From Dehalococcoidia bacterium (GTDB taxonomy: Bacteria > Chloroflexota > Dehalococcoidia > Lucifugimonadales > UBA2985): a stretch of DNA of 64,000 bases. A program made the position numbers and the translations under genes. Positions 44,019-64,000 of the stretch are shown piece after piece. Below the pieces are notes generated by a model that was not told the DNA's origin, did not search any database, and was given only the letters and a program-made list of their open reading frames with translations. The first letter of the stretch is position 1; each line of letters starts with the position of its first letter. The stretch is taken from contig OZ253466.1 in the NCBI GenBank assembly GCA_965261605.1, positions 1,440,819 to 1,504,818 on the forward strand, given 5' to 3'.

Positions 44019-44022
44019 TGGA

Positions 44023-47540: not shown

Positions 47541-47750
47541 CTACGCTTGGTCGAAGTCCTCCCGGCTGATGTCCAAGTCTCTTCGGATGCCGTGAAGGGT
47601 CCCCGTGGCCAGGTCCCGTTTGCCGTGTCTGGGAACGGTGGTTTCCTGGTTGTTGGCTGGGTTGATCCAGATTTCGTGCGATCCTCCTGCCTGGCGGTCA
47701 AAGGCGCATCCGAGCCTTCTGAGCTTCCTCGTCAGTTCTCTATAGGTCAT
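47541..47750 (-). CDS. hicA: HicA mRNA interferase toxin
   Basis: MTYRELTRKLRRLGCAFDRQAGGSHEIW...VPRHGKRDLATGTLHGIRRDL. Confidence 0.85.
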   Translation of the reverse strand: MTYRELTRKLRRLGCAFDRQAGGSHEIWINPANNQETTVPRHGKRDLATGTLHGIRRDLDISREDFDQA

Positions 47751-47992
47751 ACAGCCACAGATATCCTGCCCTCTCCGGTCTGGGATCGAGCTATCCCCGC
47801 AGGCAGGGATTTGCCCCGTTCCCTGTAGGAGAGGATGAATTGCTCAGCCACCGTGCACAGTTCGGCCAGGGTCTGGTTGGCGTTCTCCCCCCACGCACGG
47901 CACCCGGGCAATCCCGGTATCTCTGCCATGTAAAGCCACCCCTGGTCTTCACGGGGTTCGTGCAGTACATAGTCCAACTGGTACAGTTCCAT
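47747..47992 (-). CDS. hicB: HicB antitoxin
   Basis: ...GWLYMAEIPGLPGCRAWGENANQTLAEL... (UPF0150/HicB N-domain). ATGA overlap with hicA. Confidence 0.75.
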   Translation of the reverse strand: MELYQLDYVLHEPREDQGWLYMAEIPGLPGCRAWGENANQTLAELCTVAEQFILSYRERGKSLPAGIARSQTGEGRISVAV

Positions 47993-48019
47993 CTCGTCCT
48001 CCTTGGATCCCCTTAGCCT

Positions 48020-48094
48020 TCACCTCTCCCGGTCCACGATCTCTATCTTGCCTCCCGGCAATACCGTCGTCCGTATGTGCAACACTTTTTGCAT
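48020..48094 (-). pseudogene. Truncated paralog of the 47272-47505 gene (24 codons)
   Basis: MQKVLHIRTTVLPGGKIEIVDRER-stop. The first 21 aa are identical to the neighbour, and all ~8 nucleotide differences are synonymous. Confidence 0.6.
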
Positions 48095-48155
48095 CTACTC
48101 GTCCTCCTTGTAGCCTTGCCCCTTCACTCCACTGTCTGCCCCAAGGCTGTTATGT

Positions 48156-48674
48156 TCATTCAATTCCCAACCGCTTGTCCAGCAGCACTACGAATGATCG
48201 TGCCAAAGATGTCCCAACGAACGCTGTTTGGCCGATGGCGACCACACCAAATGCAACCAAGAATAGGTACTTCGAATCAATACCTAAGAAGACTGCTTCA
48301 GAGCCAACAGTCGCAGCATACCGATGGAGTGTCGAGTCGAGAGCAAAAAGCAGCCCCAGCAAGACACCTACGTAGAATGTCAAAACAAGTAAGACATAGG
48401 TGACATGCCCCATACTCCATATCGATGCTTGCACCAATGATAACTTTCGCATGGCATCATTCTCTGCAGTAGCCTCCCACCATCCTGACAGGCTTGCATA
48501 AAAACCTAGCGCCAAAGCAATGCCCAACCAAAGTTCCAGGAGTTCACGTGTGATAAATGGCATATCCGGGTTCCATTCGTAAGTGTGTTGAAACGCTAGC
48601 AGCAAGAGTGCTAGTAGAGAAAGAAGCCATATTACCCGGAAAAACCATGCAGTTTTTCTCCCGCCGTCGTTCAT
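48156..48674 (-). CDS. Hypothetical integral membrane protein (~5 TM)
   Basis: 172 aa and strongly hydrophobic. Co-oriented downstream of the methyltransferase. Lower GC (45-58% in sampled lines). Confidence 0.5.
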   Translation of the reverse strand: MNDGGRKTAWFFRVIWLLSLLALLLLAFQHTYEWNPDMPFITRELLELWLGIALALGFYASLSGWWEATAENDAMRKLSLVQASIWSMGHVTYVLLVLTFYVGVLLGLLFALDSTLHRYAATVGSEAVFLGIDSKYLFLVAFGVVAIGQTAFVGTSLARSFVVLLDKRLGIE

Positions 48675-48717
48675 CGCTCTCTGACACCTTTTTCGTTAAT
48701 GCTTAATGATTCAGTTC

Positions 48718-48996
48718 TCATCGCCTTCCCGTAAGCCTGTAGTAGGCGGGATAGACTACCGCCGCAGCCAGTAAGATACCAATGCCGCCCATTAGAACCA
48801 TGGCCATTCCGAAGTCTAGAACGTACAGAACAATCCTGTTCGCCAACTCCGCGTCTTTTGCCTGTTCCACCACTATGTTATGAACAAGTTCGCTCCACAA
48901 TTGGCGAGTCAATGAGAAGATAAACGCGTCGATGACTAGTCCCAAGACGATCGTAATTGCAAATAGTAGTCTTGCTTCGCCCACCATAACCTCCAT
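48718..48996 (-). CDS. Hypothetical small membrane protein (2-3 TM)
   Basis: 92 aa, starting 11 nt after the methyltransferase stop. Confidence 0.45.
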   Translation of the reverse strand: MEVMVGEARLLFAITIVLGLVIDAFIFSLTRQLWSELVHNIVVEQAKDAELANRIVLYVLDFGMAMVLMGGIGILLAAAVVYPAYYRLTGRR

Positions 48997-49007
48997 CCAG
49001 CGAGTAA

Positions 49008-52000: not shown

Positions 52001-52349
52001 CTCGGCAAGCGGTTGGTTTTCCGGCCTGCCTCTTAACCCATTGCCAAACTTGCTGCGTGCGGGCTGCGTCGACAAAGATGATGAGGTGCTCAAAGGCCCG
52101 CTTTGTGACTTGGGTCTCTATCTTGCGCCGCAACGGGTAATCGGGAATAGCGCCATCGGACCCTGGGGCGCATTGAAAGACGGCGAACTCCGCCTTTTTC
52201 GCTACGGGCCTGAGCGCGTACTCGAAGCCGTCCACAGGGATGGCTAGTGATTCACCCTGGAAGTGGTCCCAACCCAGGCCCTCCACGAAGAGACGCGGAA
52301 AGTCGAAAGCCTGTAGGTGGGGCCGTAGCTCTTCAATGGAGACTGGCAT
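49008..52349 (-). CDS. Large Eco57I/type IIG-like N6-adenine DNA methyltransferase with C-terminal recognition domain
   Basis: 1113 aa. FLNGGLF, motif I VLDPTCGSGAFL, motif IV VIGNPPYVEY. Its ATG overlaps the helicase TGA by 1 nt (TGATG). Confidence 0.85.
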   Translation of the reverse strand: MPVSIEELRPHLQAFDFPRLFVEGLGWDHFQGESLAIPVDGFEYALRPVAKKAEFAVFQCAPGSDGAIPDYPLRRKIETQVTKRAFEHLIIFVDAARTQQVWQWVKRQAGKPTACREHRFYAGQTGQPLLQRLDNFLFTLEDEAKGIGITDVVSLVGKVFDVEKVTKRFYERFRAELTAFGNFIEGITAQGDRDWYASLMLNRMMFVYFIQKKNFLDGDPDYLRNRLSTVRNQSGGGRFQQFYRIFLLRLFHKGLALPEAQRTPDLIALLGKVPFLNGGLFDQHALEQDNPDISIPDAAFERVFDFFDGYTWHLDDRPGKKDNEINPDVLGYIFEKYVNQKQMGAYYTKEDITGYISRNTVIPFLFDAARKECPVAFGPDGGVWRLLRDDPDRYIYPAVGHGITWNARQAEDPKPLDTPFHLPDDIAAGIGDVSQRGGWNRPAPDDYALPTETWREVVARRTRYEEVRAKLASGEAQNVNDLITLNLDIERFARDVIAQSAGHDLLRAFWHAMRDVSVLDPTCGSGAFLFAALNILEPLYTACLEGMRGFLDDAERSEHKRSASFLEDFRKVLDEADGHPSERYFILKSIVLNNLYGVDIMEEAVEICKLRLFLKLVAQLETYDQIEPLPDIDFNIRAGNTLVGFTSLDAVRQAMTVMPNGQYRALDEEQQRTLARIEEDADVAGRAFDRFREQQTALGGEVTAEHKKDLRDRLQSLGNELDRLLAAEYGVDPKKTATYDAWRNGHQPFHWFAEFYGIMARGGFDVVIGNPPYVEYSKIRREYEIRGFETEQCGNLYALCAERSSNLLGSGRRLGFIVQAPVVSTQRMSQLRELLYQHSEFTSYAIFNDRPSKLFQGMNNCRVCIVLHCKGTSKQHRTTATTRYHKWYKEETPSLLDLVQYQFAPVAIPGEVIPKLRSQTDLNIYRKVLSLPTTLGSLISATPTEHRIYYKITGVNRWFTFTTSPPRFWRDGIEGSSTRESSVCFPNPLIRDTVFCLLWSTFHYWLYQARTNCRDFNPSDLESIPIPDSIADGVSLLQKSAHQIISCLEENSDIQAATYNIGGAVEYQRFSPASAKPFIDNVDRMLAEHYGFTDEELDFIINYDIKYRMGREG

Positions 52350-55300
52350 CAGCGGTTGTCCTCACTGTCGAACAGCCCCAGGGAGCAGATGATCTGCGGT
52401 TCCTGGGCCTCGGCAACTGCGTTCCCCGTTAGGCAGAGCCTGTCCTCCTCACGCAGCGACATGACGATTTCGGCCAACTGGTCGTCGGAGACGCCGCTGC
52501 GGAGCTGCCGGTTCAGGGTGTCCACTGCCGACGGGCGCAGAGGATAGCGGTAGATGTCGTCGATGGCCTTGTGCAGCGCCTCCACGTCGAACAGCTGGCC
52601 CTTGATGGCCTCCGCGTACTGCTTGAGACGGGTGTACGTGCGGAAGCGAGCGCCGGAGGGCCGCCCGAGCTGGCCGCCGACTCGCTTCTCCTCCCTGACG
52701 AGGTGACCGACCCCGTCGGCGACGAGGCGATGGTGGCTCTCGTGATGAGGCTGCGCAGGGGTGTCCGGCCTGCACTCGGCGGCGGCGAGGATTTCAAGCT
52801 GCGACTCGGTGATGCTGTGACCCTCGCGGTCCACGTAAGCCAGGGCGTCGTTCCCGTCCGCCGTGCGCATGAAGACGAGGACGCCTTCGGGCCGCTGGGC
52901 GATGGGCGTGTGCTGGCGAGACGAGAACACGACGTCGGGCAGGTCGGCGACGGCCTTCTCCAATCGCGGGTCCGCGCTCGTAGCGTTCTTCCAGATCTGG
53001 TAAGCGTGGGACGCCAGGTCAACCTCACCGTCGGGGTCGCCGTCCAGGATGCCGGCGCGCTCGTTGTAGAGGTTGACGATGGTCTGGCTATCGGATTCAT
53101 CTTCGAAGAAAGCCTCGTCCGCGCCAACGACCTCCGCGTTTTCCCGAAGCCGCGTCCGAACGCGGTTACGCAGGTTGATGATACGCTCTACGCCGTCGGC
53201 GGGCAGGAAGGAGTGGCACAGAATCTCCTCCGCCTTCTGCCCTATGCGGTCGACGCGGCCCGCCCGCTGGATAAGACGGATGATGGCCCAAGGCAGGTCG
53301 TAGTTGACGACGACGTGGCAGTCCTGGAGGTTCTGGCCCTCGCTGAGTACGTCGGTGGCGACCAGGACGCGAAGCTCCTGTTCCGGTTTGTCCTGGCCCG
53401 GCCGCTGGTTGCTGTTGGGGCTGAATCGCCGTGCAAACTGCGTGGGGTCGGCGGAGCTGCCGGTGACGCCCGCCATAGCCTCCACGCCTCTGCCCTTGAG
53501 CTGCGACTCAAGGTAGAAGACCGTATCGGCGAACTGGGAGAAGACCAGGACCTTCCGGTCCGGGAACGTCTCCATAAGGAGCGTGTGGAGCGCGTCGAGC
53601 TTGGCGTCGTGACGCGGGTCCCATGCGCCGTAGGTCTGGAGCAGGTCCAGGAGGGCGTTGGAGTCGGCCTGGAGTTCGCTCTCCAAGGAATCCCGAAAGA
53701 GGTCGGAGCGGAGCCACTTGAAGCGTCTCCTATAGCGGCCCTCGTAATCCGCGTATATAGCGGCGGCGCTCGCTTCGAAGCCGGCCGCAGTCCAAGCGCC
53801 GCCGGTCTCCTGGACTTCCTCTTCCTGCTCGTCATCGTCAGGGTCGAAGAGTGATCCCCTCGCCTGGTCTGCGTCTTCGTCGGTGAAGCGGGAATCCAGC
53901 ATCTCGGCGTCCTGCGTGCCAAGGGGCAGCGGCAGGCCATTCTGGAGGGCGTGAAGGAAGACATAGTTTCGGAGAACGTGACGTTCGACGGATTGCAGGA
54001 AGGCCGCGCCGCTGCTTTCCAGGCGTTTGAAGAGGTTCGTACGGCAGAAGCCCATCAGCCGCTTCCCGGCCCGTGAGAGGTCGTTTATTTGGCGATCCTC
54101 GGCAGTAGTGGGCGGCGTCCCCGGGTTGTCAGCGACGTAGTTGCCAAGGCCGTATCTTGGCAGATGCAGATTGTTCACCGTATCGACCACCTGTTGCGAG
54201 TACAGCTTGGCGTACTGGTCATCTGGATTGGACTCGTCGATGGCGAATTTGACTGTCTTAGGAATACGGGTGGGGAAGAACGATTGGGTTCCGTCCTCGT
54301 AGGTGAGGAACTTTCGCCCTGTCTCCTGTTCCGTCTCCGCGTAGTTGTCCTGGATGAAGCTGCGGGTGCGGCGCACGAGGTAGAGTCTCATCAGGTCCCG
54401 CCAGTCATCTGCGTGCTCACTGAAGTCGAAGGCCGCCAGGGTGCGCGGCGAGGCCTGGTGGCGCCTGCTGAACTCGATCTCGCCCAACTCTCGCAGGAGT
54501 CGTTCGGGGCGGATGCCCAGGTCTTGGTCTTCCTCAACGAAGATGCGCAGTTGGCTGGACAGGTCCAAGTACGTCTTGTTGTAGGGCGTAGCCGATAGGA
54601 GAATGCACTTGCTCTCGTTTGCGTGTACGTACTCTTGGATTGCCCGATAGCGGCGGCCCTCGCGGTTTCGAAGGTTGTGACTCTCGTCAATGACAACCAG
54701 TCGGTAGCGGCGTAGGGTGGGCAGCTCGCCGAGCACCCTGCTGAGGGACAGCACCCTGGCCCGCAGCTGGTACTGGTACACGTAGTCTTCCCACATGGGG
54801 ACGAGGTTCTTGGGGCAGATGATAAGCGTCTCCAGCCCGTAGTCGTCCTCGAAGATGCGAGCGACGGCGGTAGCCATGAGTGTCTTGCCAAGTCCCACCA
54901 CATCCCCGATGAGCACGCCGTTGCGCTTGTTCAAATGGTGGGCCGCGATCTTGACTGCGGCGGCCTGGAAGTCGAACAGCCGGTCGCCGAACACCTTGGG
55001 AATCCTGAACTCGGCAAGACCGGCGCGGGCCTCGTGAGAGAGGTGGTAGGCCATCTTGAGGTAGACGTGGTAGGGAGGAATGAGCGCTTCCCGCGCCCAA
55101 CTCTCTTCGATGATCTGAAGCAGCTCGTCCGTGATGTCAACACAGAAGCGGTCGCTCCACCTGTCCTCGAACCACTGCGTGAGCTTGAGAGCGGCGTCGT
55201 GGTCGAGCACGTCCACGTTCAACTCGCCTTGCCCGGAGAGCCCTGCGAAGGTCAGGTTGCTGCTTCCCAGGTAGCCGACGATGGGGTTGACGGGGTCGTC

Positions 55301-55744
55301 TCGGAACAACAGGTAGAGCTTCGCGTGCAAAGGATGACGTAGGAAGAGCTTGACAACGACCTTCTTGGCGCGAAGCTGCTCGGCCAACTGCCGTAAGGTC
55401 CGCTCGTCGGCGTTGGTAGGCGCACCCATGGTGAGCTGCTGGCGGAGTTGCTCGGCCAACTGGACTCTGAGGCGATGCGCCGTCTGGTTGTCCATGCCGG
55501 AGGGCCTGTCGACGAGGCTTAGCATCTCCCGGAGCTCCTCGTGGGGCAGACGCTGCATCCCGATGAGGACGCGGCACGGGCCGTCGTCGTCACTCCAGTC
55601 GTCCACGCACGGGGCAAGACCGCCCCAGCCTCGCAGGTTGAAGTAGCCGACGCAGAAGTCCGCACGCGAAGAGAGCGCCAGAGTCTCTTGCAACGCGGGC
55701 AGTAGGCTTGAATCAGGCGCAAGGTTGTCGAAGATACGCGGCAT
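52349..55744 (-). CDS. PLD-nuclease domain fused to SNF2-family helicase
   Basis: PLD HxK motif HAKLYLLF...GSSNLT. Helicase motifs GDVVGLGKTLMA (I), VIDESHNLRN (II), LLSATPYNK (III), QRAGRVDRIGQ (VI). Confidence 0.85.
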   Translation of the reverse strand: MPRIFDNLAPDSSLLPALQETLALSSRADFCVGYFNLRGWGGLAPCVDDWSDDDGPCRVLIGMQRLPHEELREMLSLVDRPSGMDNQTAHRLRVQLAEQLRQQLTMGAPTNADERTLRQLAEQLRAKKVVVKLFLRHPLHAKLYLLFRDDPVNPIVGYLGSSNLTFAGLSGQGELNVDVLDHDAALKLTQWFEDRWSDRFCVDITDELLQIIEESWAREALIPPYHVYLKMAYHLSHEARAGLAEFRIPKVFGDRLFDFQAAAVKIAAHHLNKRNGVLIGDVVGLGKTLMATAVARIFEDDYGLETLIICPKNLVPMWEDYVYQYQLRARVLSLSRVLGELPTLRRYRLVVIDESHNLRNREGRRYRAIQEYVHANESKCILLSATPYNKTYLDLSSQLRIFVEEDQDLGIRPERLLRELGEIEFSRRHQASPRTLAAFDFSEHADDWRDLMRLYLVRRTRSFIQDNYAETEQETGRKFLTYEDGTQSFFPTRIPKTVKFAIDESNPDDQYAKLYSQQVVDTVNNLHLPRYGLGNYVADNPGTPPTTAEDRQINDLSRAGKRLMGFCRTNLFKRLESSGAAFLQSVERHVLRNYVFLHALQNGLPLPLGTQDAEMLDSRFTDEDADQARGSLFDPDDDEQEEEVQETGGAWTAAGFEASAAAIYADYEGRYRRRFKWLRSDLFRDSLESELQADSNALLDLLQTYGAWDPRHDAKLDALHTLLMETFPDRKVLVFSQFADTVFYLESQLKGRGVEAMAGVTGSSADPTQFARRFSPNSNQRPGQDKPEQELRVLVATDVLSEGQNLQDCHVVVNYDLPWAIIRLIQRAGRVDRIGQKAEEILCHSFLPADGVERIINLRNRVRTRLRENAEVVGADEAFFEDESDSQTIVNLYNERAGILDGDPDGEVDLASHAYQIWKNATSADPRLEKAVADLPDVVFSSRQHTPIAQRPEGVLVFMRTADGNDALAYVDREGHSITESQLEILAAAECRPDTPAQPHHESHHRLVADGVGHLVREEKRVGGQLGRPSGARFRTYTRLKQYAEAIKGQLFDVEALHKAIDDIYRYPLRPSAVDTLNRQLRSGVSDDQLAEIVMSLREEDRLCLTGNAVAEAQEPQIICSLGLFDSEDNR

Positions 55745-56012: not shown

Positions 56013-56258
56013 GTCCCAGTAACTCCTCATCAAGAAAGCCTATCACCTACAATGAAAATATAAGACTATAGACATGTATCGTCAATATCCTTGACCCTCT
56101 CCCAAGCAGCGGGAAAGCGGCATCGGGACTTCGGACAGCAAAAAAGGGCAGCATACACGGGAACACGGCCAGTCTGAAACGCAAAAAGGCCGCACACATG
56201 AACGAGCCAGGGGAGGCCTCCGCACTTGCAGCGACGACCTCCCCTGTATCTTAGCGGT

Positions 56259-58610
56259 CTAACGCCCCGCGCAGACCATCTCCTCCTTCCGTTCCTGCTC
56301 TAGGGCGAGCGCCCAATCGAACAGAGAGGCGGTAGCGGGCTGGGCTTGGCGGCCCCTGCCCTTCGGCTTGACCGGCTCCTCGGCCATGAACTCCGCCCAG
56401 GAGAACAGCGACTGCTGCGGCTCCGGGGCCTCGTCGTGGCGGCCGTTGCCGTTCCCGTTGGCGTGGCGGTCGTTGCCCAGGACCAGCTCGACCGTCGGCC
56501 CGATGGCTTCGGTGTGGTGGCCGTTCCCGTTGGCCCCGTTGCCGTTGACCGCGACGGCCTCCGGCTCCACCTCGACCAGCTTCCAGTCGTCGTCCACCAG
56601 GAACTCTTCCGAAACGGCCTCAGCGTCTCTGGCCTGGGCGAAGACCGCCTCCACCGTCTCGGCGTCGTCCTCCTCTCCGCTTATGACCTGCCGGGCCAAC
56701 GCCATCATCAGGTCGTCGCCGTCGTCGCCGTAGGCGGCCAGCCCGTCCTCCGGCAGCTCGCCCTCGACGGCGAGGGAGCTTTGCAGCTTCTTCGCCACCA
56801 GCTTCAGCGCATCGGCCTGGAGGGTGTTCCGGTAGGACATGAACACCACCTTCACCGGGCGGGTCTGCCCGATGCGCCACGACCGCCGCGACGCCTGCCG
56901 CATCACGTAGACCGAGTAATCGGTCTCGTACCAGCAGAGGGTCTGGAAGTCGATGAGGTCGAGGCCGGTCTGCACCAGCCTGGGATGGCAGATGAGCACG
57001 TCGATGCCCTGCTTCACCCTGTCGGCCACCCACGCCTCCCTCTGGTCCGGGGCCACGGCGTCAGCCTTCATCACCGCCACACGGAATCCGTGCCGGGTGA
57101 GCATGTCGTCCATCCGCTCGGTGATGTCCCGCGTTCCCGTGTGGGTGGCGTAGACCAGCACCCTTCGGCCCTCCATCCGCTCGGCGGCCACCAAGTCGAT
57201 GAGCGCCTGCTCCTTGGGGTAGAGCTTGTCCTCATGCAGGGGAGGGACCTGCACGATGACTTCGCCGCTCCTGGGGTCGAAGACCGTCTCCCCCTTGGTG
57301 CAGCCGTCGGGGTAGGCCAGGAGGGTTTGCAGGTAGGTCGCCAGCAGCCGCTTGGAACCCTTCTTCAGGGCCTCAGCCAGCTTCAGCCGCAACTCCTCGT
57401 ACACCGTGGTGTAGGCGCTGCGCTGAGAGTAGCCCGTCGAGTCCGCCTCCGAGTCCATCGAGGAGAGCAGAATCTGCTCCTCGTAGGGAGGCAGCCCGGA
57501 GGCCACGTCGGACAACCGCAGGAAGACGGTGTTGCCGATGATGTGGAAGAGGGCGCTCGGCACGAGGCCGGGCCTCTCCCTCACCACCTTGCGGTACTGG
57601 CGGCGGCGGCTGAAGCGCCCGTCCTCCACGGCATCGTCGTCGGGCTTGCCGACCGTGTACTCCTCGAAGCCGTAGCGCTGAATCCAGCGGTGCTCCTCGG
57701 AGCGCCCGAACTCCGTCCTGATCTCAGGCGAGAACCTGTAGAGCAGGTGGAACAGCGTCGAGCTGTAGCCGCCCATCAGCGTCCCGGACAGGCTGAGGGA
57801 CTTGCCGCACACGTCGGCGAGGACCCCGGCGGCGATGCCCTGGGCCGACCCCCGGCCCTTGTACTCGTGGACCTCGTCCGTTACGAGCAGGTCGAAGAAG
57901 CCCTTCATCCGGTGCTTCACGTAGTCCGCAAGCGGGTAGCGGGCTGGCCCGGACTTGTCCGCCTGCCACAGGGGGCCGCCGCAGTCGGCGCAGGTGTGCT
58001 TGCGGCGGTTCAGGTCGGCGTCCGTCAGGGGAACGCCATCCTTGTCCACGACCTGCGCCGTGCAGTCGGGGCAGCAGGGCACCCGGAAGGGCTCCCCCGT
58101 CTCCTCGTCCCGCAACAGCCTGCCCTTGGAGACGGCCCACCGCTGTATCACGGCGGGCATCCACCGGTAGGACAGCTTGGCCTTCTCCCGCGACATGACC
58201 ACGAAGAGAGGGCCGGAGCCGACGGAGATGCGCAGCCGCTCCAGGTCGGTGATGGATTTGACGATGACGGCGCGGGCGCCGGGCACCGTCATCTCCACTT
58301 CCCGCTTCCACTTGGGCACCAGGTGGGGCGGGCAGAGGATGAGCACCCTCTTGAAGCCCGCCATGTGAGCGGCGGCTGCGGCGATGAAGGTCTTGCCGGT
58401 GCCCATCTCGCCGACGACGGTGGTGCCCCGGTGGGCTTCAAGGGAGAGGGCCGCGCCCCGTATGGCGTCCTCCTGCGCCCCCAGGGGGGAGCGGAGCAGG
58501 CGGGGAAGCGTGTGGCAGTTCTCCGAGGGCCGGTAGAGCGGCGGGTAGGACTCCACCACCCGCTTGGCGATAGCGTCCTTGAACGTGTCGATGAATCCTC
58601 CGAGGTTCAT
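56259..58610 (-). CDS. SNF2/DEAD-like helicase with inserted zinc ribbon (mobile-element type)
   Basis: GEMGTGKTFIA (I), LLVTDEVHEYKG (II), RRSWRIGQTRPV (VI). Insert: CCPDCTAQV...HTCADCGGPLW. Confidence 0.85.
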   Translation of the reverse strand: MNLGGFIDTFKDAIAKRVVESYPPLYRPSENCHTLPRLLRSPLGAQEDAIRGAALSLEAHRGTTVVGEMGTGKTFIAAAAAHMAGFKRVLILCPPHLVPKWKREVEMTVPGARAVIVKSITDLERLRISVGSGPLFVVMSREKAKLSYRWMPAVIQRWAVSKGRLLRDEETGEPFRVPCCPDCTAQVVDKDGVPLTDADLNRRKHTCADCGGPLWQADKSGPARYPLADYVKHRMKGFFDLLVTDEVHEYKGRGSAQGIAAGVLADVCGKSLSLSGTLMGGYSSTLFHLLYRFSPEIRTEFGRSEEHRWIQRYGFEEYTVGKPDDDAVEDGRFSRRRQYRKVVRERPGLVPSALFHIIGNTVFLRLSDVASGLPPYEEQILLSSMDSEADSTGYSQRSAYTTVYEELRLKLAEALKKGSKRLLATYLQTLLAYPDGCTKGETVFDPRSGEVIVQVPPLHEDKLYPKEQALIDLVAAERMEGRRVLVYATHTGTRDITERMDDMLTRHGFRVAVMKADAVAPDQREAWVADRVKQGIDVLICHPRLVQTGLDLIDFQTLCWYETDYSVYVMRQASRRSWRIGQTRPVKVVFMSYRNTLQADALKLVAKKLQSSLAVEGELPEDGLAAYGDDGDDLMMALARQVISGEEDDAETVEAVFAQARDAEAVSEEFLVDDDWKLVEVEPEAVAVNGNGANGNGHHTEAIGPTVELVLGNDRHANGNGNGRHDEAPEPQQSLFSWAEFMAEEPVKPKGRGRQAQPATASLFDWALALEQERKEEMVCAGR

Positions 58611-58654
58611 GTCTTTCTCCTTTTATTAGAGTGTGTTGCGTTCCGTCCAAACAA

Positions 58655-58720
58655 GGCGAGGCCCCGCGGTCCCTCATGAACAACGGGGCCTCGTGGGATA
58701 CGGCTCGGTAGAGCCGTCTA
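58655..58720 (-). repeat. Intergenic stem-loop unit, subfamily I, copy 1
   Basis: On the coding strand: TAG, small hairpin acggct/agccgt, then GAGGCCCCG...CGGGGCCTC. Confidence 0.7.
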
Positions 58721-58936
58721 TGCGGCGTTGGGGAGGCGCTCCCTTGGCTTTGTGTCTTCGTAGCAGCGTCCCCGCAGGTGGTAGGACTTCACCGGGGTGG
58801 AGACGATCCTTCCGTCAATGATAGCCTGCCCCGTACTTGATACGGGGTCCACCGATGCGGTCTGCATGGCGGGTTCGCCGGGGGTGATGGGCTGCCCGCA
58901 GCGGGCGCAGGCTTCGAGGGTCATGTTCATCTGCAT
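58718..58936 (-). CDS. Hypothetical small protein (CxxC) carrying an in-frame family B repeat
   Basis: 72 aa, ...CARCGQPITPGEPAMQTASVDPVSSTGQAIIDGRIV...; the VDPVSSTGQA segment is encoded by the repeat at 58824-58847. Confidence 0.35.
   Translation of the reverse strand: MQMNMTLEACARCGQPITPGEPAMQTASVDPVSSTGQAIIDGRIVSTPVKSYHLRGRCYEDTKPRERLPNAA
58824..58847. repeat. Family B hairpin repeat
   Basis: gcctgccccgtacttgatacgggg. Confidence 0.85.
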
Positions 58937-58982
58937 CCTTCGGCCTCTCTTTCCTTTATTGGGTGTTTGCGTGTCCGATTGA

Positions 58983-59006
58983 CCCCGTATCGAGTACGGG
59001 GCAGGC
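58983..59006. repeat. Family B hairpin repeat (inverted orientation)
   Basis: ccccgtatcgagtacggggcaggc. Confidence 0.8.
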
Positions 59007-59008
59007 TT

Positions 59009-59079
59009 GGCGAGGCCCCGCCGTCCCCATTCACGGGAGCAGGCGGGGCCTCGTGTGTGGCTGTCCGTTCAGCCATCTA
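59009..59079 (-). repeat. Intergenic stem-loop unit, subfamily I, copy 2
   Basis: ggcgaggccccgccgtcccc...ggcggggcctcgtg...cta. Shares ggcgaggccccgc and cggggcctcgtg with copy 1. Confidence 0.7.
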
Positions 59080-60114
59080 TGCTGCGATGTCGGTGATCAC
59101 TCCGTCGTCCAGGTCCAGGGCCACCACCGTCGTCGTCAGCCGCTCGCGGTAGGTCTCCTTCTCCGGCGTCTCTTCCACCAGCGTCATCTCCTTGCAGGTG
59201 CGTCCCTTGACCAGGACGCGCCTGTCCTTGGCCTCCAGCACCAGGTTGTCGAGGAAGCCCGCCGCCACCAGCATCGCCATGTGTCCTCTTCTGAGGGGCA
59301 TCAGCGGGCGGGTGCGCAGGTCCTTCACGGGCCAGAGCGTGTCGGTTATCTCCGTGCTGGCCCACAGGCCGGAGCGTCTCGCCTCTGCCGCCGCCGCAAT
59401 GGGATCGACGGTGCGGGTGGCGAACAGGATGTCCCCGCTCGGCGTGGTCTCCGGGGTGAACGGCGGGTAGGGTTCGCGGCGCAGCGGCTCCGGTTCCCCC
59501 ACCGCCCACTCCAGCGCCATCCGCTCTGCGATGGCGTCGGGAACGGGGGCGGCCTTGCGGTAGCCCATCAGGACCACCTGGTCGAAGACCTGGCGCTCCG
59601 GGTCGGGGAAGGCCCAGCACCGCATCCGCCCGTAGTGGGTGGACAGGTAGCGGGCCGAGACCGCGAGCCTCTGCCGGGGAACGATGAACACTAGCAGGCC
59701 GCCGTCCGCCAGGTAGCGGGTGCAGTGGGTAAGGAAGGCGTGCTCCGTCCGCTTGTCCTCGGAATCAAAGTCGTATGGCGGGTTGAGCAGGAGCAACCCG
59801 AAGGCCCCGTTCGCTATCGAGGTCTGGAACAGGTCTGCGGCCAGGGCGCGGTCGAGCCGCTTCTCGGCCTCCTCCGCCCGGTCCCGGTGCAGCTCGACGC
59901 CGTAGGTCTGGATGGGGATGGCGTTGGGCCTGTCGAGGCACTCGGCCAGCTGCGCCAGCGCGTCCCCGCCCCCGCAGCAGGGGTCGAGGATGCGCAGCGT
60001 CTCCGTGTTCCGGTGGTAGGAGCCGGTGGGGGTGTGAATCAGCTCCGCGAGCAGGTCCACCACCCTGTCGGGGGTGGGGTAGTATCCGCCTTTTGCCTGT
60101 GCTGCAAGTCTCAT
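59077..60114 (-). CDS. Class I SAM-dependent N6-adenine DNA methyltransferase (orphan, mobile-element type, DUF6094-like)
   Basis: GGYYPTP, motif I ILDPCCGGGDAL, motif IV LLLNPPYD. No adjacent nuclease. Confidence 0.8.
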   Translation of the reverse strand: MRLAAQAKGGYYPTPDRVVDLLAELIHTPTGSYHRNTETLRILDPCCGGGDALAQLAECLDRPNAIPIQTYGVELHRDRAEEAEKRLDRALAADLFQTSIANGAFGLLLLNPPYDFDSEDKRTEHAFLTHCTRYLADGGLLVFIVPRQRLAVSARYLSTHYGRMRCWAFPDPERQVFDQVVLMGYRKAAPVPDAIAERMALEWAVGEPEPLRREPYPPFTPETTPSGDILFATRTVDPIAAAAEARRSGLWASTEITDTLWPVKDLRTRPLMPLRRGHMAMLVAAGFLDNLVLEAKDRRVLVKGRTCKEMTLVEETPEKETYRERLTTTVVALDLDDGVITDIAA

Positions 60115-60145
60115 GTCTCTTCTCCTTTATGGTCTTGTGCCGCCT

Positions 60146-60556
60146 TCAGGCGGCGATTGCCATGTCCTTGTGTCCATTCTTCTCTATGCCGACCACCTCG
60201 CCGATGCCCATGTTGCGCTGGTAGCAGAGGACTTGGTGTGTCCCTATGCTCTCGGCGCACGCCGTGCAGAAGGCGGTGACGAGCTCGGCGTGGTTGGCGA
60301 CCACCATCCGCCGCACCAGCACGTAGCCGCCCTGGGGAAGGGTGTAGCGGTAGAGCTGGGCCGAGGGGTCCCGCCGCTCCGCCTCCGTGGCGGGCCGGTA
60401 GAAATGGGGCTGCCCCGACTGGCAGAGATGCTTCGAGCCGTCGTGTTTGCAGTAGCGGCAGGTCGTCCCGTCCGGCGAGAAGCGCCGCCAGGCGCCCCCG
60501 TTCCGGTTCTGCCTGCGCTTGTTCTTCCGCGTGGCCTTCTTCAGCATCCTATCCAT
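60146..60556 (-). CDS. Hypothetical Cys-containing protein
   Basis: MDRMLKKATRKNKRRQNRNG...CRYCKHDGSKHLC...FCTACAE. Start uncertain. Confidence 0.4.
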   Translation of the reverse strand: MDRMLKKATRKNKRRQNRNGGAWRRFSPDGTTCRYCKHDGSKHLCQSGQPHFYRPATEAERRDPSAQLYRYTLPQGGYVLVRRMVVANHAELVTAFCTACAESIGTHQVLCYQRNMGIGEVVGIEKNGHKDMAIAA

Positions 60557-61205
60557 TGGTCTCTCCTTCCTCCCTGGGCAGGGTGAGCCAGCCCGACGCC
60601 ACGGCATCGGACAGGTCTTCCCGGAGCTTGTCGGCCTTGGGGGAGCACCTGTAGGCGGAGACGCCCACCGACTGGAGCGGGACTATCTCCCCTTCATGCA
60701 GACCACGCTCCCAGAGCCAGCCTGCCCAGGAGCCATGCAGGGGCAACGGGCTGCGCTTGTCCAGGAAGCGATGGTGCAGGCCGGGAGCTTCCTCCTCGCT
60801 GGGGGCCAGCAGCAGGAAGCTGTCCTTCTCGAATGAGAACTCCGCCGTCTTGGTATAGACCAGGGCGTGCCAGCCCCCGGAGACCGGCAGGCGGGCGATC
60901 TTGGTCGTCCACGTTCCCACCGTCTCGTAGGGAACAACGCACCGCTGATACCCGCCTGAGAGCGCCATCCCGTCCGCGCCCTTGATGATGTGGGCGACGT
61001 CCGGGGGCTGCTTGAGGAGCGACGCCCAGATCGCCTTGAGCGCCGTCTGGGAGCCGACCATCGAGACGAACCAGAGGCCGTCGGTCTCCTCGTCGCGGGC
61101 GAAGGCGTCGGCGGTGGCCGAGAAGCCCCCCGCCGTGATGGTGTACAGAGCCTGCCCCGTGCCGGATGCGGGGTCTTCGGGGTCGATGATGTGGGTTGCA
61201 AGCAT
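60549..61205 (-). CDS. Hypothetical protein
   Basis: 218 aa with a good SD (AAGGAAGGAG) before ATG 61205. No motif recognised. Confidence 0.45.
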   Translation of the reverse strand: MLATHIIDPEDPASGTGQALYTITAGGFSATADAFARDEETDGLWFVSMVGSQTALKAIWASLLKQPPDVAHIIKGADGMALSGGYQRCVVPYETVGTWTTKIARLPVSGGWHALVYTKTAEFSFEKDSFLLLAPSEEEAPGLHHRFLDKRSPLPLHGSWAGWLWERGLHEGEIVPLQSVGVSAYRCSPKADKLREDLSDAVASGWLTLPREEGETNG

Positions 61206-61323
61206 GGTGAATCTCCTTCCTTATGTGTGTTGTGTGATGCGCGGGGACTCGCTTCCCCGCGTGAGGGCCGGACAGCGTGGGCCGCCGGTCTTGGGCCGTC
61301 AGGAACCCGTATCGGGGTGCGGG

Positions 61324-61830
61324 TCAGGACATCAGGCCCCGCTCCTTGAGGCTGACGAACTTCTCGCCGCCGATGACCACGTGGTCAAGCAGCTCGACGC
61401 CCAGCAGCTTGGCCGCCTGCGTCAGGTCGCGGGTGCAGGCCACGTCCTCCGGGCTGGGTGTGGGGTCGCCACTTGGGTGGTTGTGGCTGACGATGATGCT
61501 GGGGACGGCCTCGATGACGGCGGGGCGCAGCACCTCGGCGGGCCGGACGATGGCCGAGTTCACGTTGCCTTGGTAGACGACCCGCTGGCCGACGACCTTG
61601 TTCCTGGTGTTGAGGAGCAGCACCCGGAGCTGCTCCTGGGCGAGCGGGGCCATCTCGGGTCCGAGCAGCCGCCGAACGTCTTCTGGACAGTTGATGGCGG
61701 GCAGGTCCTCCGGGAGTTCCGGCCTGGTCGCCACGTTGTAGCGCACCGCCAGCTCTCCCAGCAGGTTCATGTTGGCGCGCAGCGCCTCCAGCAGAACGGC
61801 GTCCTTGGTTGGGATCTTCTTCCTGGTCAT
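61324..61830 (-). CDS. radC: RadC-like JAB/JAMM domain protein
   Basis: VSHNHPSGDPTPSPEDVACT (JAMM motif). Confidence 0.85.
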   Translation of the reverse strand: MTRKKIPTKDAVLLEALRANMNLLGELAVRYNVATRPELPEDLPAINCPEDVRRLLGPEMAPLAQEQLRVLLLNTRNKVVGQRVVYQGNVNSAIVRPAEVLRPAVIEAVPSIIVSHNHPSGDPTPSPEDVACTRDLTQAAKLLGVELLDHVVIGGEKFVSLKERGLMS

Positions 61831-61863
61831 GTCGGCCTCCTTCGTTATCGGTTAGAAACAGAA

Positions 61864-61925
61864 GCGGGGCCGCCCCCTGTAGATGGAAGCGGCCCCGTGG
61901 TGCGCCTTCGGAGAGGCGTCGCTAT
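61864..61925 (-). repeat. Intergenic stem-loop unit, subfamily II, copy 1
   Basis: gcggggccgccccctgtagatggaagcggccccgt + gcgccttcggagaggcg. Confidence 0.75.
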
Positions 61926-61944
61926 GTGGTTGCCGGTTGACCGG

Positions 61945-62319
61945 CTAGAAGGGAGAGGCGTCGTCCGGCTGGCTGTCGTCGCCGCTGTCCCTGCCGTTGC
62001 GGGAGTCGAGGAACACGACCTCGGAGGCGTGAATCTCGGTGCGGTAGCGCCGCTGGCCGTCCTCGCCCTCCCAGGTGTTCTGGACCAGGCGTCCGGCGAC
62101 GTAGATGCGGTCGCCCTTGCCCACGTACTGGTTCACGGCCTCGGCCTGCTTGCCCCAGCAGATGACGTTGTGCCAGTCGGCCTCGACCTCCCCGTCCTGG
62201 CGGCGGCGCTCGGTGGCCAGCCGCAGCTGAACGACGGCGGTCCCGCCAGACGTGTACTTCATCTCCGGCTCCGTGCCGACTCTGCCCAAGAGCTCTACCT
62301 TGTTGATGGTGCGTGCCAT
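61945..62319 (-). CDS. ssb: Single-stranded DNA-binding protein
   Basis: MARTINKVELLGRVG..., an OB-fold pattern, and an acidic tail ending DDASPF. Confidence 0.9.
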   Translation of the reverse strand: MARTINKVELLGRVGTEPEMKYTSGGTAVVQLRLATERRRQDGEVEADWHNVICWGKQAEAVNQYVGKGDRIYVAGRLVQNTWEGEDGQRRYRTEIHASEVVFLDSRNGRDSGDDSQPDDASPF

Positions 62320-62373
62320 TTCGGTTCCTCCTGAATGGTGTGGCGCGGCGATGCCGCGCCCGGTTGAATGAGA

Positions 62374-62445
62374 GCGGGGCCGCGACCCCTGTAGAGGGAA
62401 GCGGCCCCGTCCTGCGCTCCCGCTTAGGAGCGTCTAGCTGAACCC
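62374..62445 (-). repeat. Intergenic stem-loop unit, subfamily II, copy 2
   Basis: gcggggccgcgacccctgtagagggaagcggccccgtcctgcgctcccgcttaggagcgtctagctgaacccg. Confidence 0.8.
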
Positions 62446-62516
62446 GATGTGCTGCGGTCCAGGCCCCGGCTCGTCCACTTTGTTTCTTCTCTGATTGCGT
62501 CTACGACCGCTGACCA

Positions 62517-62834
62517 CTAGGCCGCTATTCCCGACGACAGGCTCCTGATCTCGCCGAGGGTCTTCGGCTCCCAGTACAGGTCGCGCTCCACGGCGGGGAC
62601 GTTGCCGAACACGGTCGCCTCCGCCAGCTCGGTGAGGGAGAAGTAGCCGAGTTCAATCTCGAACCCCTCGACGAGTCCGAAGCACAGCCCGGTCTCGGCG
62701 TCCCACTCGGTGATGTACCAGCGCCAGCCGGTGTAGGGGCTGAACAGCTTGGCCGGGGCGAGAACGTCGTCGTTGTCTTCGACGTTCTCGTTGGCTCCTA
62801 GAGCGGGGATCTTGTCCCCGAGCTCCTTGGTCAT
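62517..62834 (-). CDS. DUF2958-like protein
   Basis: KLFSPYTGWRWYITEWDAETGLCFGLVEGFEIELGYFSLTEL. Start placed at ATG 62834, because the ORF-track N-terminus runs through a family B repeat. Confidence 0.6.
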   Translation of the reverse strand: MTKELGDKIPALGANENVEDNDDVLAPAKLFSPYTGWRWYITEWDAETGLCFGLVEGFEIELGYFSLTELAEATVFGNVPAVERDLYWEPKTLGEIRSLSSGIAA

Positions 62835-62875
62835 GAGCTTGTGCCTGCGGCGCCCGCTGTGGGCGTCCTGCCAGA

Positions 62876-62899
62876 GCCTGCCCCGCACTTGATGCGGGG
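62876..62899. repeat. Family B hairpin repeat (variant)
   Basis: gcctgccccgcacttgatgcgggg, with compensatory stem changes. Confidence 0.7.
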
Positions 62900-62970
62900 T
62901 CGTGCCGGTCGTGGCGTCTCTCTCTTGGTCAAGCATGGTGTCTCCCTCCTATGGAGTCGTATGAGATTCG

Positions 62971-63043
62971 GCGGGGCCGCCCCCTGGAGAGGGAAGACGG
63001 CCCCGTGGTTGCGCTCCCCTTGGGGAGCGTCTAGCTGACCCGC
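62971..63043 (-). repeat. Intergenic stem-loop unit, subfamily II, copy 3 (overlaps the stop codon of the upstream gene)
   Basis: gcggggccgccccctggagagggaagacggccccgtggttgcgctccccttggggagcgtctagctgacccg. Confidence 0.8.
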
Positions 63044-64000
63044 AGGTACTCGGAGACGTTCTCGGTGACGATCTCGGCGCGGGTCTCCGGGTCCAGCAGG
63101 TTGTTGAGCTTGCGGTAGTCCACCGAGTAGCGGCGGGACTTGACCATGCCCACGGAGCGGGTCTTCTCCCGCCCTTCGAGCTTCGCCTTGTCCACGCCCT
63201 GCTGCCCCAGCCAGGCCCGGAGCTTCTCCACCACCCACCGCTTCTCGTCCTCGAACTCCCGGATGGTGTCCTGTATCTCCTCGTACTCGTGGAGCGCATT
63301 GCGCGCTTCCTCGTCGGTCAGCGGCTCCTGTGGCTCGGTGTTCTCGGCGGGTTCCGCCTCCCCCTCGGCCTCCGCCGCCATCCCCGGCAGGCAGGCGTTG
63401 AGGAAGGGGCAGGACTTGCACTGCCAGTCCTTGGCGGTAAAGTCCCGTTCCGGCAGGGCGTCGGGGTCCGGTCCGTTGAGGACGAGGTGAGCGCCCAGCT
63501 CCCCCAGCCATTCGCAGGCCCGCTCCAGGGCCTGTCCCACCCGCTCGGCGGGGATGACCTCGTAGTCCCACTGGCGGCTGCCGGTGTCCATCGTGGCTAT
63601 CACCGCGTCTCGCAGCTCGCCATAGGTCCCCAGCGTGTAGAAGGCTGCCTGGGCCACCGACGCCGGGTGGCTGCGCTCCGCGCCCAGGGAGCGCCACCGC
63701 TTGAACGCCTCCGGCCCCCTGGTCTTCACCTCGATGACCGCCTCGCCGCCGAACAGTGGCAGCACTCCCGTGGCGTCGGGGTGTCCCGTCACCACCATGT
63801 TGGGATCGATGCTCACCGACACCTGCTGCGGGTCCTGGGAGTCGGCGGGAGCCACCACCCAACCGGCCCGCTCCATCGCCCCCAGCACCACCGGCTCCAG
63901 GGCATTGCCCGCTTCGAGCACCGTCAGCGACTCGGCGGTGGTGGGGTTGGTGGCTTCGTAGCCGGTCGCCGCGTACCAGAGGGCGCGGCGGCAGTTGCCC
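63031..64000 (-). CDS. PD-(D/E)xK exonuclease, Cas4/YqaJ-like with a four-Cys cluster (5' end outside window)
   Basis: The frame stays open to the window edge (GNCRRALWYAATGYE...). VTGHPDATG...EVKTR core. C-terminal CKSCPFLNAC plus the N-terminal C gives the C...CxxCx5C pattern. Confidence 0.65.
   Translation of the reverse strand, partial: GNCRRALWYAATGYEATNPTTAESLTVLEAGNALEPVVLGAMERAGWVVAPADSQDPQQVSVSIDPNMVVTGHPDATGVLPLFGGEAVIEVKTRGPEAFKRWRSLGAERSHPASVAQAAFYTLGTYGELRDAVIATMDTGSRQWDYEVIPAERVGQALERACEWLGELGAHLVLNGPDPDALPERDFTAKDWQCKSCPFLNACLPGMAAEAEGEAEPAENTEPQEPLTDEEARNALHEYEEIQDTIREFEDEKRWVVEKLRAWLGQQGVDKAKLEGREKTRSVGMVKSRRYSVDYRKLNNLLDPETRAEIVTENVSEYLRVS

Follow-up and report, generated by a model that had tools for sequence, protein, structure and literature searches.

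The window analysed here (64,000 nt of a Dehalococcoidia bacterium, contig OZ253466.1) ends in a minus-strand operon segment that runs from an exonuclease gene, cut by the window end, to a helicase gene (Table 1). Three copies of a two-hairpin unit were found in this segment, all on the minus strand (63029-62972, 62432-62375 and 61918-61865). In each, an A/C-rich linker separates a short first hairpin (hp1) from the long GC hairpin that follows (hp2). The three copies are real, with the sequence, coordinates and strand given to them in a first-pass annotation of the locus. Copies 3 and 2 are 84% identical (64/76 aligned columns), close to the 85% previously judged by eye, and copy 1 is 72-75% identical to the other two. 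The TAG before copy 3 is the genuine stop codon of the nuclease gene, as had been noted, and copy 1 begins 20 nt past the ssb stop codon (61947-61945), again in agreement with the earlier description. Units of the same build follow the DUF6094 methylase gene and the gene for a 72-aa protein (p72). The former, in which the lower stem of hp2 is CGAGGCCCC/GGGGCCTCG, probably corresponds to what had been called subfamily I. A looser relative of hp2 lies in the radC-p218 spacer and is present in 29/41 distinct radC-p218 junctions. The ssb leader carries a further hairpin, hp3, which travels with ssb.

Table 1. Positions of the hairpin units and associated features in the window.
Feature	Position	Strand	Description
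Operon segment bearing the units	56259..64000	-	exonuclease (cut by window end), DUF2958, ssb, radC, p218, p153, DUF6094 methylase, p72, helicase
Exonuclease (Cas4/RecE-like) stop codon, TAG	63031..63033	-	copy 3 hp1 begins one base later
Copy 3 hp1	63012..63029	-	CGCTCCCC aa GGGGAGCG
Copy 3 linker	between hp1 and hp2	-	CAACCA
Copy 3 hp2	62972..63005	-	lower stem CGGGGCCG/CGGCCCCG, internal loop, upper stem CCCU/AGGG
Copy 3 tail	62960..62971	-	CCGAATCTCATA; opens DUF2958 leader; weakest T-tract of the three copies
Relic of the final codons and TAG of a deleted ORF	62434..62445	-	GGGTTCAGC-TAG; ORF intact in relative L003
Copy 2 hp1	62415..62432	-	CGCTCC taagcg GGAGCG
Copy 2 hp2	62375..62409	-	
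Copy 2 tail	62362..62374	-	CTCTCATTCAACC; conserved wherever the downstream gene is ssb
Hairpin 3 (hp3), ssb leader	62342..62361	-	GGGCGCGG catc GCCGCGCC; 9 nt before AGGAGG ribosome site
Copy 1 hp1	61903..61918	-	CGCCT ctccga AGGCG
Copy 1 hp2	61865..61897	-	
Copy 1 tail	61853..61864	-	CTTCTGTTTCTA, 7 T in 12; opens radC leader
GC hairpin, radC-p218 spacer	61240..61261	-	CGCGGGGA agcgag TCCCCGCG; looser hp2 relative
Like-built unit after DUF6094 methylase gene	59011..59075	-	TAGA, hp1 59075-59058, hp2 59053-59011
Like-built unit after p72 gene	58645..58717	-	hp1 58717-58700, hp2 58693-58657, tail CCTTGTTTGGAC; covariance model E 0.009
Longer hairpin closing the operon	56206..56246	-	15 pairs

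The unit is confined to one conserved operon, represented by 25 loci in Dehalococcoidia genomes and 31 metagenome loci, in the order primase, Rad52, exonuclease, (DUF2958), ssb, radC, p218, p153, DUF6094 methylase, p72 and helicase; gene order is otherwise fixed across the 56 loci. Without exception it has the orientation of the genes, and it lies after most of them, with the module repeated at at least seven junctions per element, while operon genes without it overlap or lie 20-40 nt apart. A scan of the genome collection returned matches only to this operon, plus two chance matches in Oscillospiraceae, and all 25 Dehalococcoidia pattern matches are in the operon and in gene orientation. The same holds for the approximately 100 full-length matches to a covariance model of the unit (E<1e-3, 483 kb). 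An association with gene junctions rather than genome-wide scatter, as first proposed, is thus borne out by both searches. A hairpin of at least 8 pairs is found within 110 nt of the stop codon at 37/37 distinct nuclease and 21/21 distinct ssb junctions, and at all of these hp2 starts 24-55 nt past the stop. The element carrying the operon is integrated and belongs to a replication/recombination family with multiple copies per genome in uncultured Dehalococcoidia. Its Pfam-scanned or annotated flanks (window 42-64 kb and loci L054 and L059) encode primase, Rad52, helicase and defence genes; other loci were compared with the operon proteins of the window only. In the viral collection, neither the loop-specific pattern nor a p218 protein profile found any relatives, and the two-hairpin model reached a maximum of 38 bits. 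GC-rich phages often carry the bare stem pattern, and the stem sequence by itself therefore has no diagnostic value. One unrelated viral contig (L126) carries the same stem followed by CTTTTCTTCC between two co-directional genes.

The loop-plus-stem pattern gave no match in 100 shuffles of the window. With the covariance model, built from related units, the three copies score 70-80 bits (E approximately 1e-11 to 1e-13), and the only match in the remaining 55 kb of the window is the related p72-helicase junction. Rfam gave no match at gathering score in the whole window, and one irrelevant snoRNA match at E up to 5 in the 58.5-63.2 kb region. The unit is well supported as a structured motif, backed by covariation, without an Rfam match. 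Predicted folds compared with shuffles have z-scores of -3.1 to -3.9 as RNA and -3.7 to -4.9 as DNA, and the hairpins form just as well in DNA and on either strand. For whole junctions the antisense strand has the better folding energy, but this comparison is uninformative, because a G/T-rich strand such as the antisense one folds better in any case.

The stems match codon positions 1 and 2 in conservation, and the loops drift. At the nuclease-ssb junction, column scores are 0.9-1.0 for stems, 0.3-0.4 for loops and 0.4-0.5 for third codon positions. Purifying selection acts on the stems and not on the loops, and the structure is kept through compensatory change. The lower stem of hp2 occurs as CGGGGCCG/CGGCCCCG, CAGGGCCG/CGGCCCTG, CGTGGCCG/CGGCCACG, CGCGGCCCC/GGGGCCGCG and the methylase-junction form given above, and the hp1 stem as CGCTCC/GGAGCG, CGGCTC/GAGCCG, CGCCTT/AAGGCG, CGACGC/GCGTCG and CGCCCTCC/GGAGGGCG. 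Among 64 anchored hp2 stems, 96.5% of cells are paired and 6/9 pairs have changed on both sides, a level of pairing reached by 0/500 shuffles and compared with 38-55% in slid controls. A larger set of 132 model-aligned units is 93% paired, with changes on both sides of 16/18 pairs. Pairing is kept by compensatory changes even at 56-62% protein identity. Covariation, one of the tests that the first-pass annotation had set for itself, is thus present in both sets, and together with the link to gene junctions it leaves the unit standing. The proposal that loop conservation suggests a sequence-specific function fares less well, as the loop is kept among close relatives only. In loci at 56-75% protein identity the apical part of hp2 is quite different with pairing kept, and in locus L002 it is inverted. 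As the genome set consists mostly of close relatives, shared ancestry accounts for much of the sequence identity. Nearly invariant unpaired bases are found around the hairpins, as GA before hp1, CA after hp1 and A before hp2.

Core pairs have G-U and A-C wobbles at 31:10, whereas the ratio is 72:70 when all modelled pairs are counted, so this strand test, strong on the hand-anchored set, was downgraded as evidence; the bias toward the sense strand is only modest. Inspection found no conserved attenuator-like pairing between hp1 and hp2 arms. PYLIS- or SECIS-type signals for stop-codon read-through, considered since TAG dominates, were rejected because no extended frame survives the loop indels and because TAG is frequent in this genome generally.

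It had been stated that there is no U-tract after the stems, and that they are therefore not classical terminators. The first statement is correct in that there is no unbroken U run: the T-tract is always interrupted, and in copy 3 it is poor (3 T in 12). However, T makes up 44.7% of positions +2 to +9 after hp2 in 64 distinct units, compared with 13.7% on the strand and 5.7% just upstream. The tails are thus 3.3-fold T-enriched and amount to a weak U-tract, and with such enrichment across the units the exclusion of terminators on this ground does not stand. At least 3 T in 9 nt are found in 53/64 tails, and tails differ by downstream gene, yet all are T-rich. In a simple terminator scan only copy 1, with its tail, appears terminator-like. 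The same scan gave no more matches in the host part of the window than in shuffles, so no host terminator standard can be derived from it. The leaders are A/C-rich and G-poor, and thus unstructured. The operon part of the window yielded no sigma-70-like promoter, and no -35/-10 hexamer pair lies in or beside the stems of the units, which are pure G/C. As the downstream genes are without promoters, read-through RNA must exist. In metatranscriptomes, at most 6% of words match in RNA runs, and the Logan contigs concerned are short, undirected and from diverged relatives; one marked 'RNA?' runs from the end of ssb through the unit into the start of radC. In the DNA runs X1-X4, 57-71% of words of the window's element are present. 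Relatives of the element are probably transcribed.

From these sequence features we favour, with a probability of about 0.5, a structured intercistronic module of the sense strand that would act at the mRNA level as a leaky intrinsic terminator or 3'-end stabiliser. The module consensus is (stop codon)-A-[hp1, 5-8 bp]-CAnnCA-[hp2]-C-[T-rich tail, YTYRTTTCA-like]-[A/C-rich leader]-AGGAGG-ATG, in which hp2 is a 9-bp GC clamp with a 3-5 bp upper stem. As in intrinsic terminators, a GC-rich stem-loop lies just past the stop codon on the coding strand. At 13-16 bp, the composite stems exceed the 7-11 bp usual for terminators (PMC10325885), and long mobile-element operons can hold more than 20 internal intrinsic terminators, as in pLS20 (PMC8955417, PMC10325885). 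In the proposed mechanism, hp2 and its U-enriched tail would form a sub-optimal, leaky terminator, and transcripts stopped or trimmed after hp2 would have a nuclease-resistant 3' end. As a conjecture, hp1, which abuts the stop codon, would be melted by the terminating ribosome and then refold, either as a second 3' clamp or as a spacer holding hp2 clear of the ribosome. With no promoters after the units, some polymerases must read through. Leakiness would then give a step-down gradient along the operon; alternatively, read-through may depend on a putative antitermination factor.

A module for RNA processing, stability or insulation without termination is possible but less probable. In the processing version, RNA would be cut in the single-stranded, U/A-richer linker after hp2, with hp1 and hp2 shielding the upstream piece from 3' exonucleases and a 5' hairpin such as hp3 before ssb shielding the downstream piece. 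In the insulation version, the hairpins would merely keep long spacers structured, for example against Rho loading. The layout of hairpin, linker, hairpin and ribosome site before ssb in all loci is consistent with such a module, as are the unstructured leaders, the read-through RNA that promoterless genes demand and the conservation of structure rather than loop sequence. However, most junctions (those with radC, DUF2958, p72 or helicase downstream) are without a 5' hairpin, the stems are shorter than classical RNase III sites, which are roughly 20 bp, and the T-enrichment right after hp2 is left unexplained.

Differences in gene content between loci begin and end at the units. In both the window and L003, a unit stands on either side of DUF2958 (plus orfX). 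Tandem ssb copies are connected through ssb-hp1, hp2 and the ssb leader, and DNA metagenome contigs switch inside hp2 (62382>61880, 62383>62995 and 61857>62388). Similarity of the units extends 2-3 codons into unrelated ORFs: nuclease and orfX share the end TCAGC-TAG-ACGCTC, and methylase and p72 share CGCCGCA-TAG-ACGGCTC. In L003, a second ORF after DUF2958 ends in ..TTCGAGTTCAGC-TAG-ACGCTC and is followed by the same unit as copy 2, so the earlier suggestion that copy 2 marks the tail of a deleted gene is confirmed. The best reading of these edges is a by-product of the module, the copies of which would passively supply homology for gene insertion, loss and duplication, as in the DUF2958 insertion and the ssb duplications. 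A broader proposal, which we hold to be doubtful, is a portable gene-end cassette of last codons, stop codon and two hairpins that would serve both for transcription punctuation, perhaps with an element-encoded read-through factor, and as a standard gene joint. That the modules are primarily a DNA-level feature, joints (homology or recombination sites) for cassette exchange between related elements, is unlikely. Besides the gene-content edges, the tandem ssb copies, the contig switches and the shared codons, the inverted hp2 of L002 would fit such joints. However, the genes otherwise keep a fixed order, the Pfam-scanned ORFs (the 42-64 kb island and locus L054) include no recombinase gene, and alignments of relatives place joints in conserved repeats anyway. 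Homology also needs no hairpins, yet both are kept by compensatory changes.

Slightly less likely still is a binding site for an element-encoded factor, which might be a nut/put-like antitermination signal, a translational repressor site or the target of a dedicated endoribonuclease. Such a factor would read the single-stranded GA..CA..CA bases together with stem bases. The near-invariance of the unpaired GA, CA and A, and the presence in the operon of the conserved uncharacterised proteins p218, p153 and p72, are in its favour. However, the loops and most of the stem positions are free to vary, inversion of the apical part is seen in L002, and nut and put sites are found once or twice per operon, unlike one unit after each gene.

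The first-pass annotation had also raised a promoter active in single-stranded DNA. Such a signal, Frpo-like or a priming site in transfer or replication, appears very unlikely. The set of ssb, radC, DUF2958 and methylase is reminiscent of plasmid leading regions, primase and helicase genes are present in the element, and the unit folds well as ssDNA. Frpo also resembles the unit as repeated hairpin-forming non-coding DNA near ssb and establishment-type genes, but its long stem rebuilds the -10/-35 hexamers, its defining feature, upstream of gene groups, whereas the unit is short (approximately 70 nt), free of hexamers and placed after nearly every gene, abutting stop codons (bioRxiv 10.1101/2022.09.06.506729). 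The hp1 sequence is free to vary, and the Pfam-scanned or annotated ORFs (window 42-64 kb, L054 and L059) include no relaxase or type IV secretion genes. Least likely of all is a neutral, recently duplicated repeat without function, which the dominance of close relatives in the genome set would favour but which is opposed by stems far more conserved than adjoining synonymous sites and by compensatory pairing at 56-62% protein identity. An identity as integron attC hairpins is likewise not supported. An attC site is one imperfect hairpin ending in the core sites RYYYAAC and GTTRRRY; the unit is two separate hairpins with the ends GACG.. and ..CCCCGC and no GTTRRRY. Nor does the setting resemble an integron, with no recombinase domain in the Pfam-scanned ORFs of the window (42-64 kb) and L054 and with gene order conserved in the 56 loci.

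Among known systems, the promoter-early stem-loops (PeSLs) of T4-like phages are similar in being repeated after many genes, with a G/C-rich stem-loop acting as terminator or attenuator and with insertion, deletion and replacement edges inside them (PMC2839356, PMC4122927). As in PeSLs, stem-loop and ribosome site here form a conserved intergenic cassette that marks indel edges. However, PeSLs carry a strong sigma-70 early promoter, whereas the unit, tails and leaders have none; the unit has two hairpins, its similarity includes the stop codon, and it flanks conserved core operon genes of an integrated Dehalococcoidia element rather than mostly orphan genes of a T4-like phage. In pLS20, where conAn processive antitermination reads through them, many hairpin terminators likewise lie within one long co-directional mobile-element operon, and the internal ones are considered to limit spurious transcription and to set graded expression levels (PMC8955417, PMC8191782, PMC10325885). 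There too, a longer hairpin closes the operon. Compared with pLS20 terminators, which are unrelated to each other, the units are homologous copies of one module and have weaker U-tracts. In length, their hp2 stems already match those reported as antitermination-resistant. No conAn-like or other antitermination system was identified for this element. Enterobacterial REP/BIME sequences are GC-rich imperfect palindromes between co-transcribed genes that stabilise upstream mRNA, can attenuate transcription and are recombination hot spots. REPs are, however, scattered genome-wide in hundreds of copies and both orientations, whereas the unit is found in one operon of one element family and in a single orientation. 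The start-associated and extended start-associated sequences of Cluster K mycobacteriophages are reportedly short conserved intergenic motifs, some of them inverted repeats, of unproven function. They too recur beside many genes of one mobile genome, but are anchored to start codons and conserved in sequence, whereas the unit is anchored to stop codons and conserved in structure.

The motif is specific to a family of integrated replication/recombination elements of uncultured Dehalococcoidia, and in annotation the module marks gene ends and this element family. If they are leaky terminators, the units illustrate how a 15-gene operon is silenced or expressed in a graded manner along its length, in a phylum for which, to our knowledge, nothing is known about termination signals. 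The repeated joints for DUF2958 and ssb cassettes offer a testable example of modular evolution by 'linker sequences' outside T4-like phages. If the gene-end cassette reading is true, a new class of structured RNA motif would be defined, and PeSL-like modular shuffling would be seen in an integrated element of an uncultured phylum.

The three minus-strand units, each a short hairpin (hp1) followed by a long GC hairpin (hp2), lie exactly where the first-pass annotation placed them, in a run of co-directional minus-strand genes at the window end. In relatives, a DnaG-like primase, a Rad52-family annealing protein, DUF7007 and sometimes a further small ORF are encoded upstream of the exonuclease, so the unit sits in an operon for replication and recombination that is part of an integrated element. 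Window positions 1-42 kb are ordinary chromosome and 42-56 kb carry restriction and defence-type genes. In each copy hp1 is joined to hp2 by a 5-6 nt A/C-rich linker with a final A, and in most junctions it starts one base past the stop codon. The lower stem of hp2 in the three copies is 8-9 bp long (CGGGGCCG/CGGCCCCG) and is separated by a small internal loop from an upper stem of 4 bp; the tail that follows is rich in pyrimidines and T, and after it come an A/C-rich leader, AGGAGG and the start codon of the next gene. Identity is 84% between copies 3 and 2 and 72-75% between copy 1 and either of them. The predicted folds are better than those of shuffles for RNA and DNA alike and for either strand, and the loop-plus-stem pattern is beyond chance expectation.

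The same plan is seen in nearly all operon spacers longer than ~60 nt: after the exonuclease, every ssb copy, the methylase and p72, and in relatives also after Rad52 and after the ORF preceding the exonuclease. Where the module is missing, neighbouring genes overlap or are separated by 20-40 nt. The unit is an example of a more general junction layout. TAG is the stop in 75-93% of the exonuclease, ssb, methylase and p72 genes of the window operon and loci L001-L058, and in 15/39 other window ORFs; the protein products of methylase, p72 and p153 all terminate in ..AA. An extra ~85-aa ORF with four-cysteine motifs, absent from the window, occupies the p153-methylase spacer in L003, L006, L010, L016, L017 and L027, and its junctions carry no hairpin module.

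Features of the operon and its surroundings (window positions)
Feature	Position	Strand	Remarks
Cas4/RecE-like exonuclease	stop 63033-63031	minus	truncated by window end
Copy 3	63029-62972	minus	
DUF2958	62936-62517	minus	
ORF tail	62445-62434		ahead of copy 2
Copy 2	62432-62375	minus	
hp3 (extra hairpin)	62361-62342		ahead of ssb, between tail and ribosome site
SSB	62319-61945	minus	
Copy 1	61918-61865	minus	
RadC	61830-61324	minus	
p218 and p153	between RadC and methylase	minus	conserved, without family
DUF6094 methyltransferase (methylase)	60114-59077	minus	
Methylase junction unit	59075-59011	minus	lower-stem variant CGAGGCCCC/GGGGCCTCG
p72	between methylase and helicase	minus	72 aa, zinc-ribbon-like
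p72 junction unit	58717-58657	minus	lower-stem variant CGAGGCCCC/GGGGCCTCG
Helicase	58610-56259	minus	783 aa
Operon-end hairpin	56206-56246	minus	3' of helicase stop; longer, 15 pairs; then second hairpin and T-rich stretch (GCGGCCTTTTTGCGTTTCAG)
Good sigma-70-like promoter	56085-56057		TTGACG-17-TATATT; beyond operon-end hairpins, ahead of AlpA-like HTH gene
Defence-type cluster	42110-55744	minus	downstream of operon; PLD-SNF2 helicase (1131 aa), Eco57I/MmeI-like methylase (1113 aa), GHKL ATPase, DprA-like and PIN-like proteins, Vsr, C5 cytosine methylase
Mini-hairpins	2072-2123, 19375-19426, 58829-58847, 58983-59001, 61155-61173, 62881-62899		
67-nt direct repeat	47439-47505, 48028-48094		87% identical; 5' ends of two small minus-strand ORFs 589 nt apart
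Seven 111-nt tandem repeats	40917-41882		RCC1 repeats of 591-aa hydrolase-RCC1 protein

A scan for the hp2 loop-plus-stem pattern, with one genome per species, returned 27 loci, 25 of them in Dehalococcoidia MAGs, where one genome often holds several; the two in Oscillospiraceae are chance matches. All 25 fall within the same operon, whose proteins are 57-92% identical to those of the window. Searching metagenomes with a p218 profile brought in a further 31, more distant loci (56-82% identity), and no relatives turned up in the viral collection with the loop-specific pattern or the p218 profile. A covariance model made from 22 units gave ~100 full-length matches (E<1e-3) in 483 kb, in the window only the three copies and the p72 junction; a nearly identical contig from the same element has two further units past the window end. 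Every match lies within the operon and on the same strand as the genes, so the unit is operon-specific and, not being dispersed, is not the generic REP that had been considered.

Conservation was scored on aligned exonuclease-ssb junctions, including 150 nt of coding sequence on either side. Columns in the stems of hp1, hp2 and hp3 score 0.9-1.0, the level of codon positions 1 and 2, and hairpin loops score 0.3-0.4, at or below third codon positions (0.4-0.5). The hp2 lower stem is invariant among close relatives, while distant loci keep both hairpins with different sequences (hp2: CAGGGCCG/CGGCCCTG, CGTGGCCG/CGGCCACG, GGGCCGG/CCGGCCC, CGCGGCCCC/GGGGCCGCG; hp1: CGCTCC/GGAGCG, CGGCTC/GAGCCG, CGCCTT/AAGGCG, CGCTTC/GAAGCG, CGACGC/GCGTCG, CGCCCTCC/GGAGGGCG, CGGCGG/CCGCCG). 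Among 64 distinct base-anchored hp2 stems, pairing holds in 96.5% of cells and 6/9 pairs are changed on both sides (55 such cells; 0/500 shuffles equalled this, and slid controls are 38-55% paired), and among 132 distinct model-aligned units the values are 93% and 16/18, with anchoring and model alignment biased towards structure, cells being non-independent events, and many double changes stemming from the split between two main stem classes. Selection acts on the fold. In the wider set the apical part is free to vary, with covariation in its small upper stem, and in the L002 ssb-radC junction (oriented ~5742-5807) the inner part of hp2 is reverse-complemented relative to all other copies (..GGGCCGCCCCCTGTAGATGGGAGCGGCCC..), a small inversion between the stem arms that leaves the T-rich tail unaltered. 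The sequence-specific function that the first-pass annotation proposed for this apical part, taken there as a conserved loop, is thus unsupported.

Genes and units are usually ordered exonuclease-[unit]-ssb-[unit]-radC. A DUF2958 segment lies between two units in the window and L003; that of L003 includes a second ORF ending ..TTCGAGTTCAGC-TAG-ACGCTC, of which just the tail is left in the window, so the view of copy 2 as carrying a deleted gene's tail was right. In several loci two or three ssb genes stand in tandem, connected via ssb-hp1, hp2 and ssb leader, DNA-metagenome contigs change arrangement within hp2, and similarity between units extends 2-3 codons into unrelated ORFs. Together these arrangements indicate that the repeated modules mark edges of gene gain and loss. 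This would be most simply explained by homologous recombination, which is described at the promoter-early stem-loops (PeSLs) of T4-like phages (PMC2839356, PMC4122927). No recombinase was found among Pfam-scanned ORFs of window 42-64 kb and L054.

A second repeat, a mini-hairpin of ~27-30 nt (consensus (GA)CCCCGTATCNAGTACGGGGCAGGCT), is present in the operon, in the window's chromosomal part, in L005, L008, L024 and other loci, and in two viral contigs. It behaves like a small insertion element. Some orthologues carry it and others lack it: in most loci p218 has IDPEDLYTI where the window has IDPEDPASGTGQALYTI, and p218 of L005 has two tandem copies; both primase and exonuclease of L008 carry it. 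Inside ORFs the frame is kept and 9-10 residues are added. It lies directly 3' of hp2 in the window methylase junction and in L024.

The units keep a fixed orientation with respect to the genes. T makes up 44.7% of sense-strand positions +2 to +9 after hp2, while its share is 13.7% of the strand and 5.7% of the 6 nt preceding hp2, and 53/64 tails have at least three T in 9 nt, compared with 33/120 same-stem hairpins in unrelated viral contigs. The tails, part of the downstream gene's leader, differ among ssb, radC, p72 and helicase and are all T-rich, which looks like a shared constraint. G-U outnumber A-C mismatches 31:10 in core stems and are level overall (72:70), an only modest sense-strand preference, and no promoter-like sites were found between genes. 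Taken together, orientation, tails, G-U bias and lack of intergenic promoter-like sites make an mRNA-level signal the best reading. Here hp2 with its sub-optimal U-tract would be a leaky intrinsic terminator and 3'-end clamp, with hp1 accessory, and polymerases would have to partly read through, by leakiness or an antitermination factor; operons with >20 internal terminators are documented in other mobile elements (PMC8955417, PMC10325885). The main rival, a processing or stability role without termination, would suit the position of hp3 between tail and ribosome site before ssb.

In working, the putative mRNA signal comes closest to PeSLs or internal operon terminators. It is not itself a PeSL, because it has no promoter, nor a single-strand promoter of plasmid leading regions (Frpo), because it rebuilds no -35/-10 boxes; attC identity is ruled out by the missing core sites, the presence of more than a single hairpin and the lack of a nearby integrase among the Pfam-scanned ORFs. 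Rfam, searched with the window (gathering score) and with 58.5-63.2 kb (permissive E), gave no match to the unit. We rate the unit as a solid candidate RNA motif of this operon, with a putative but ordinary function.
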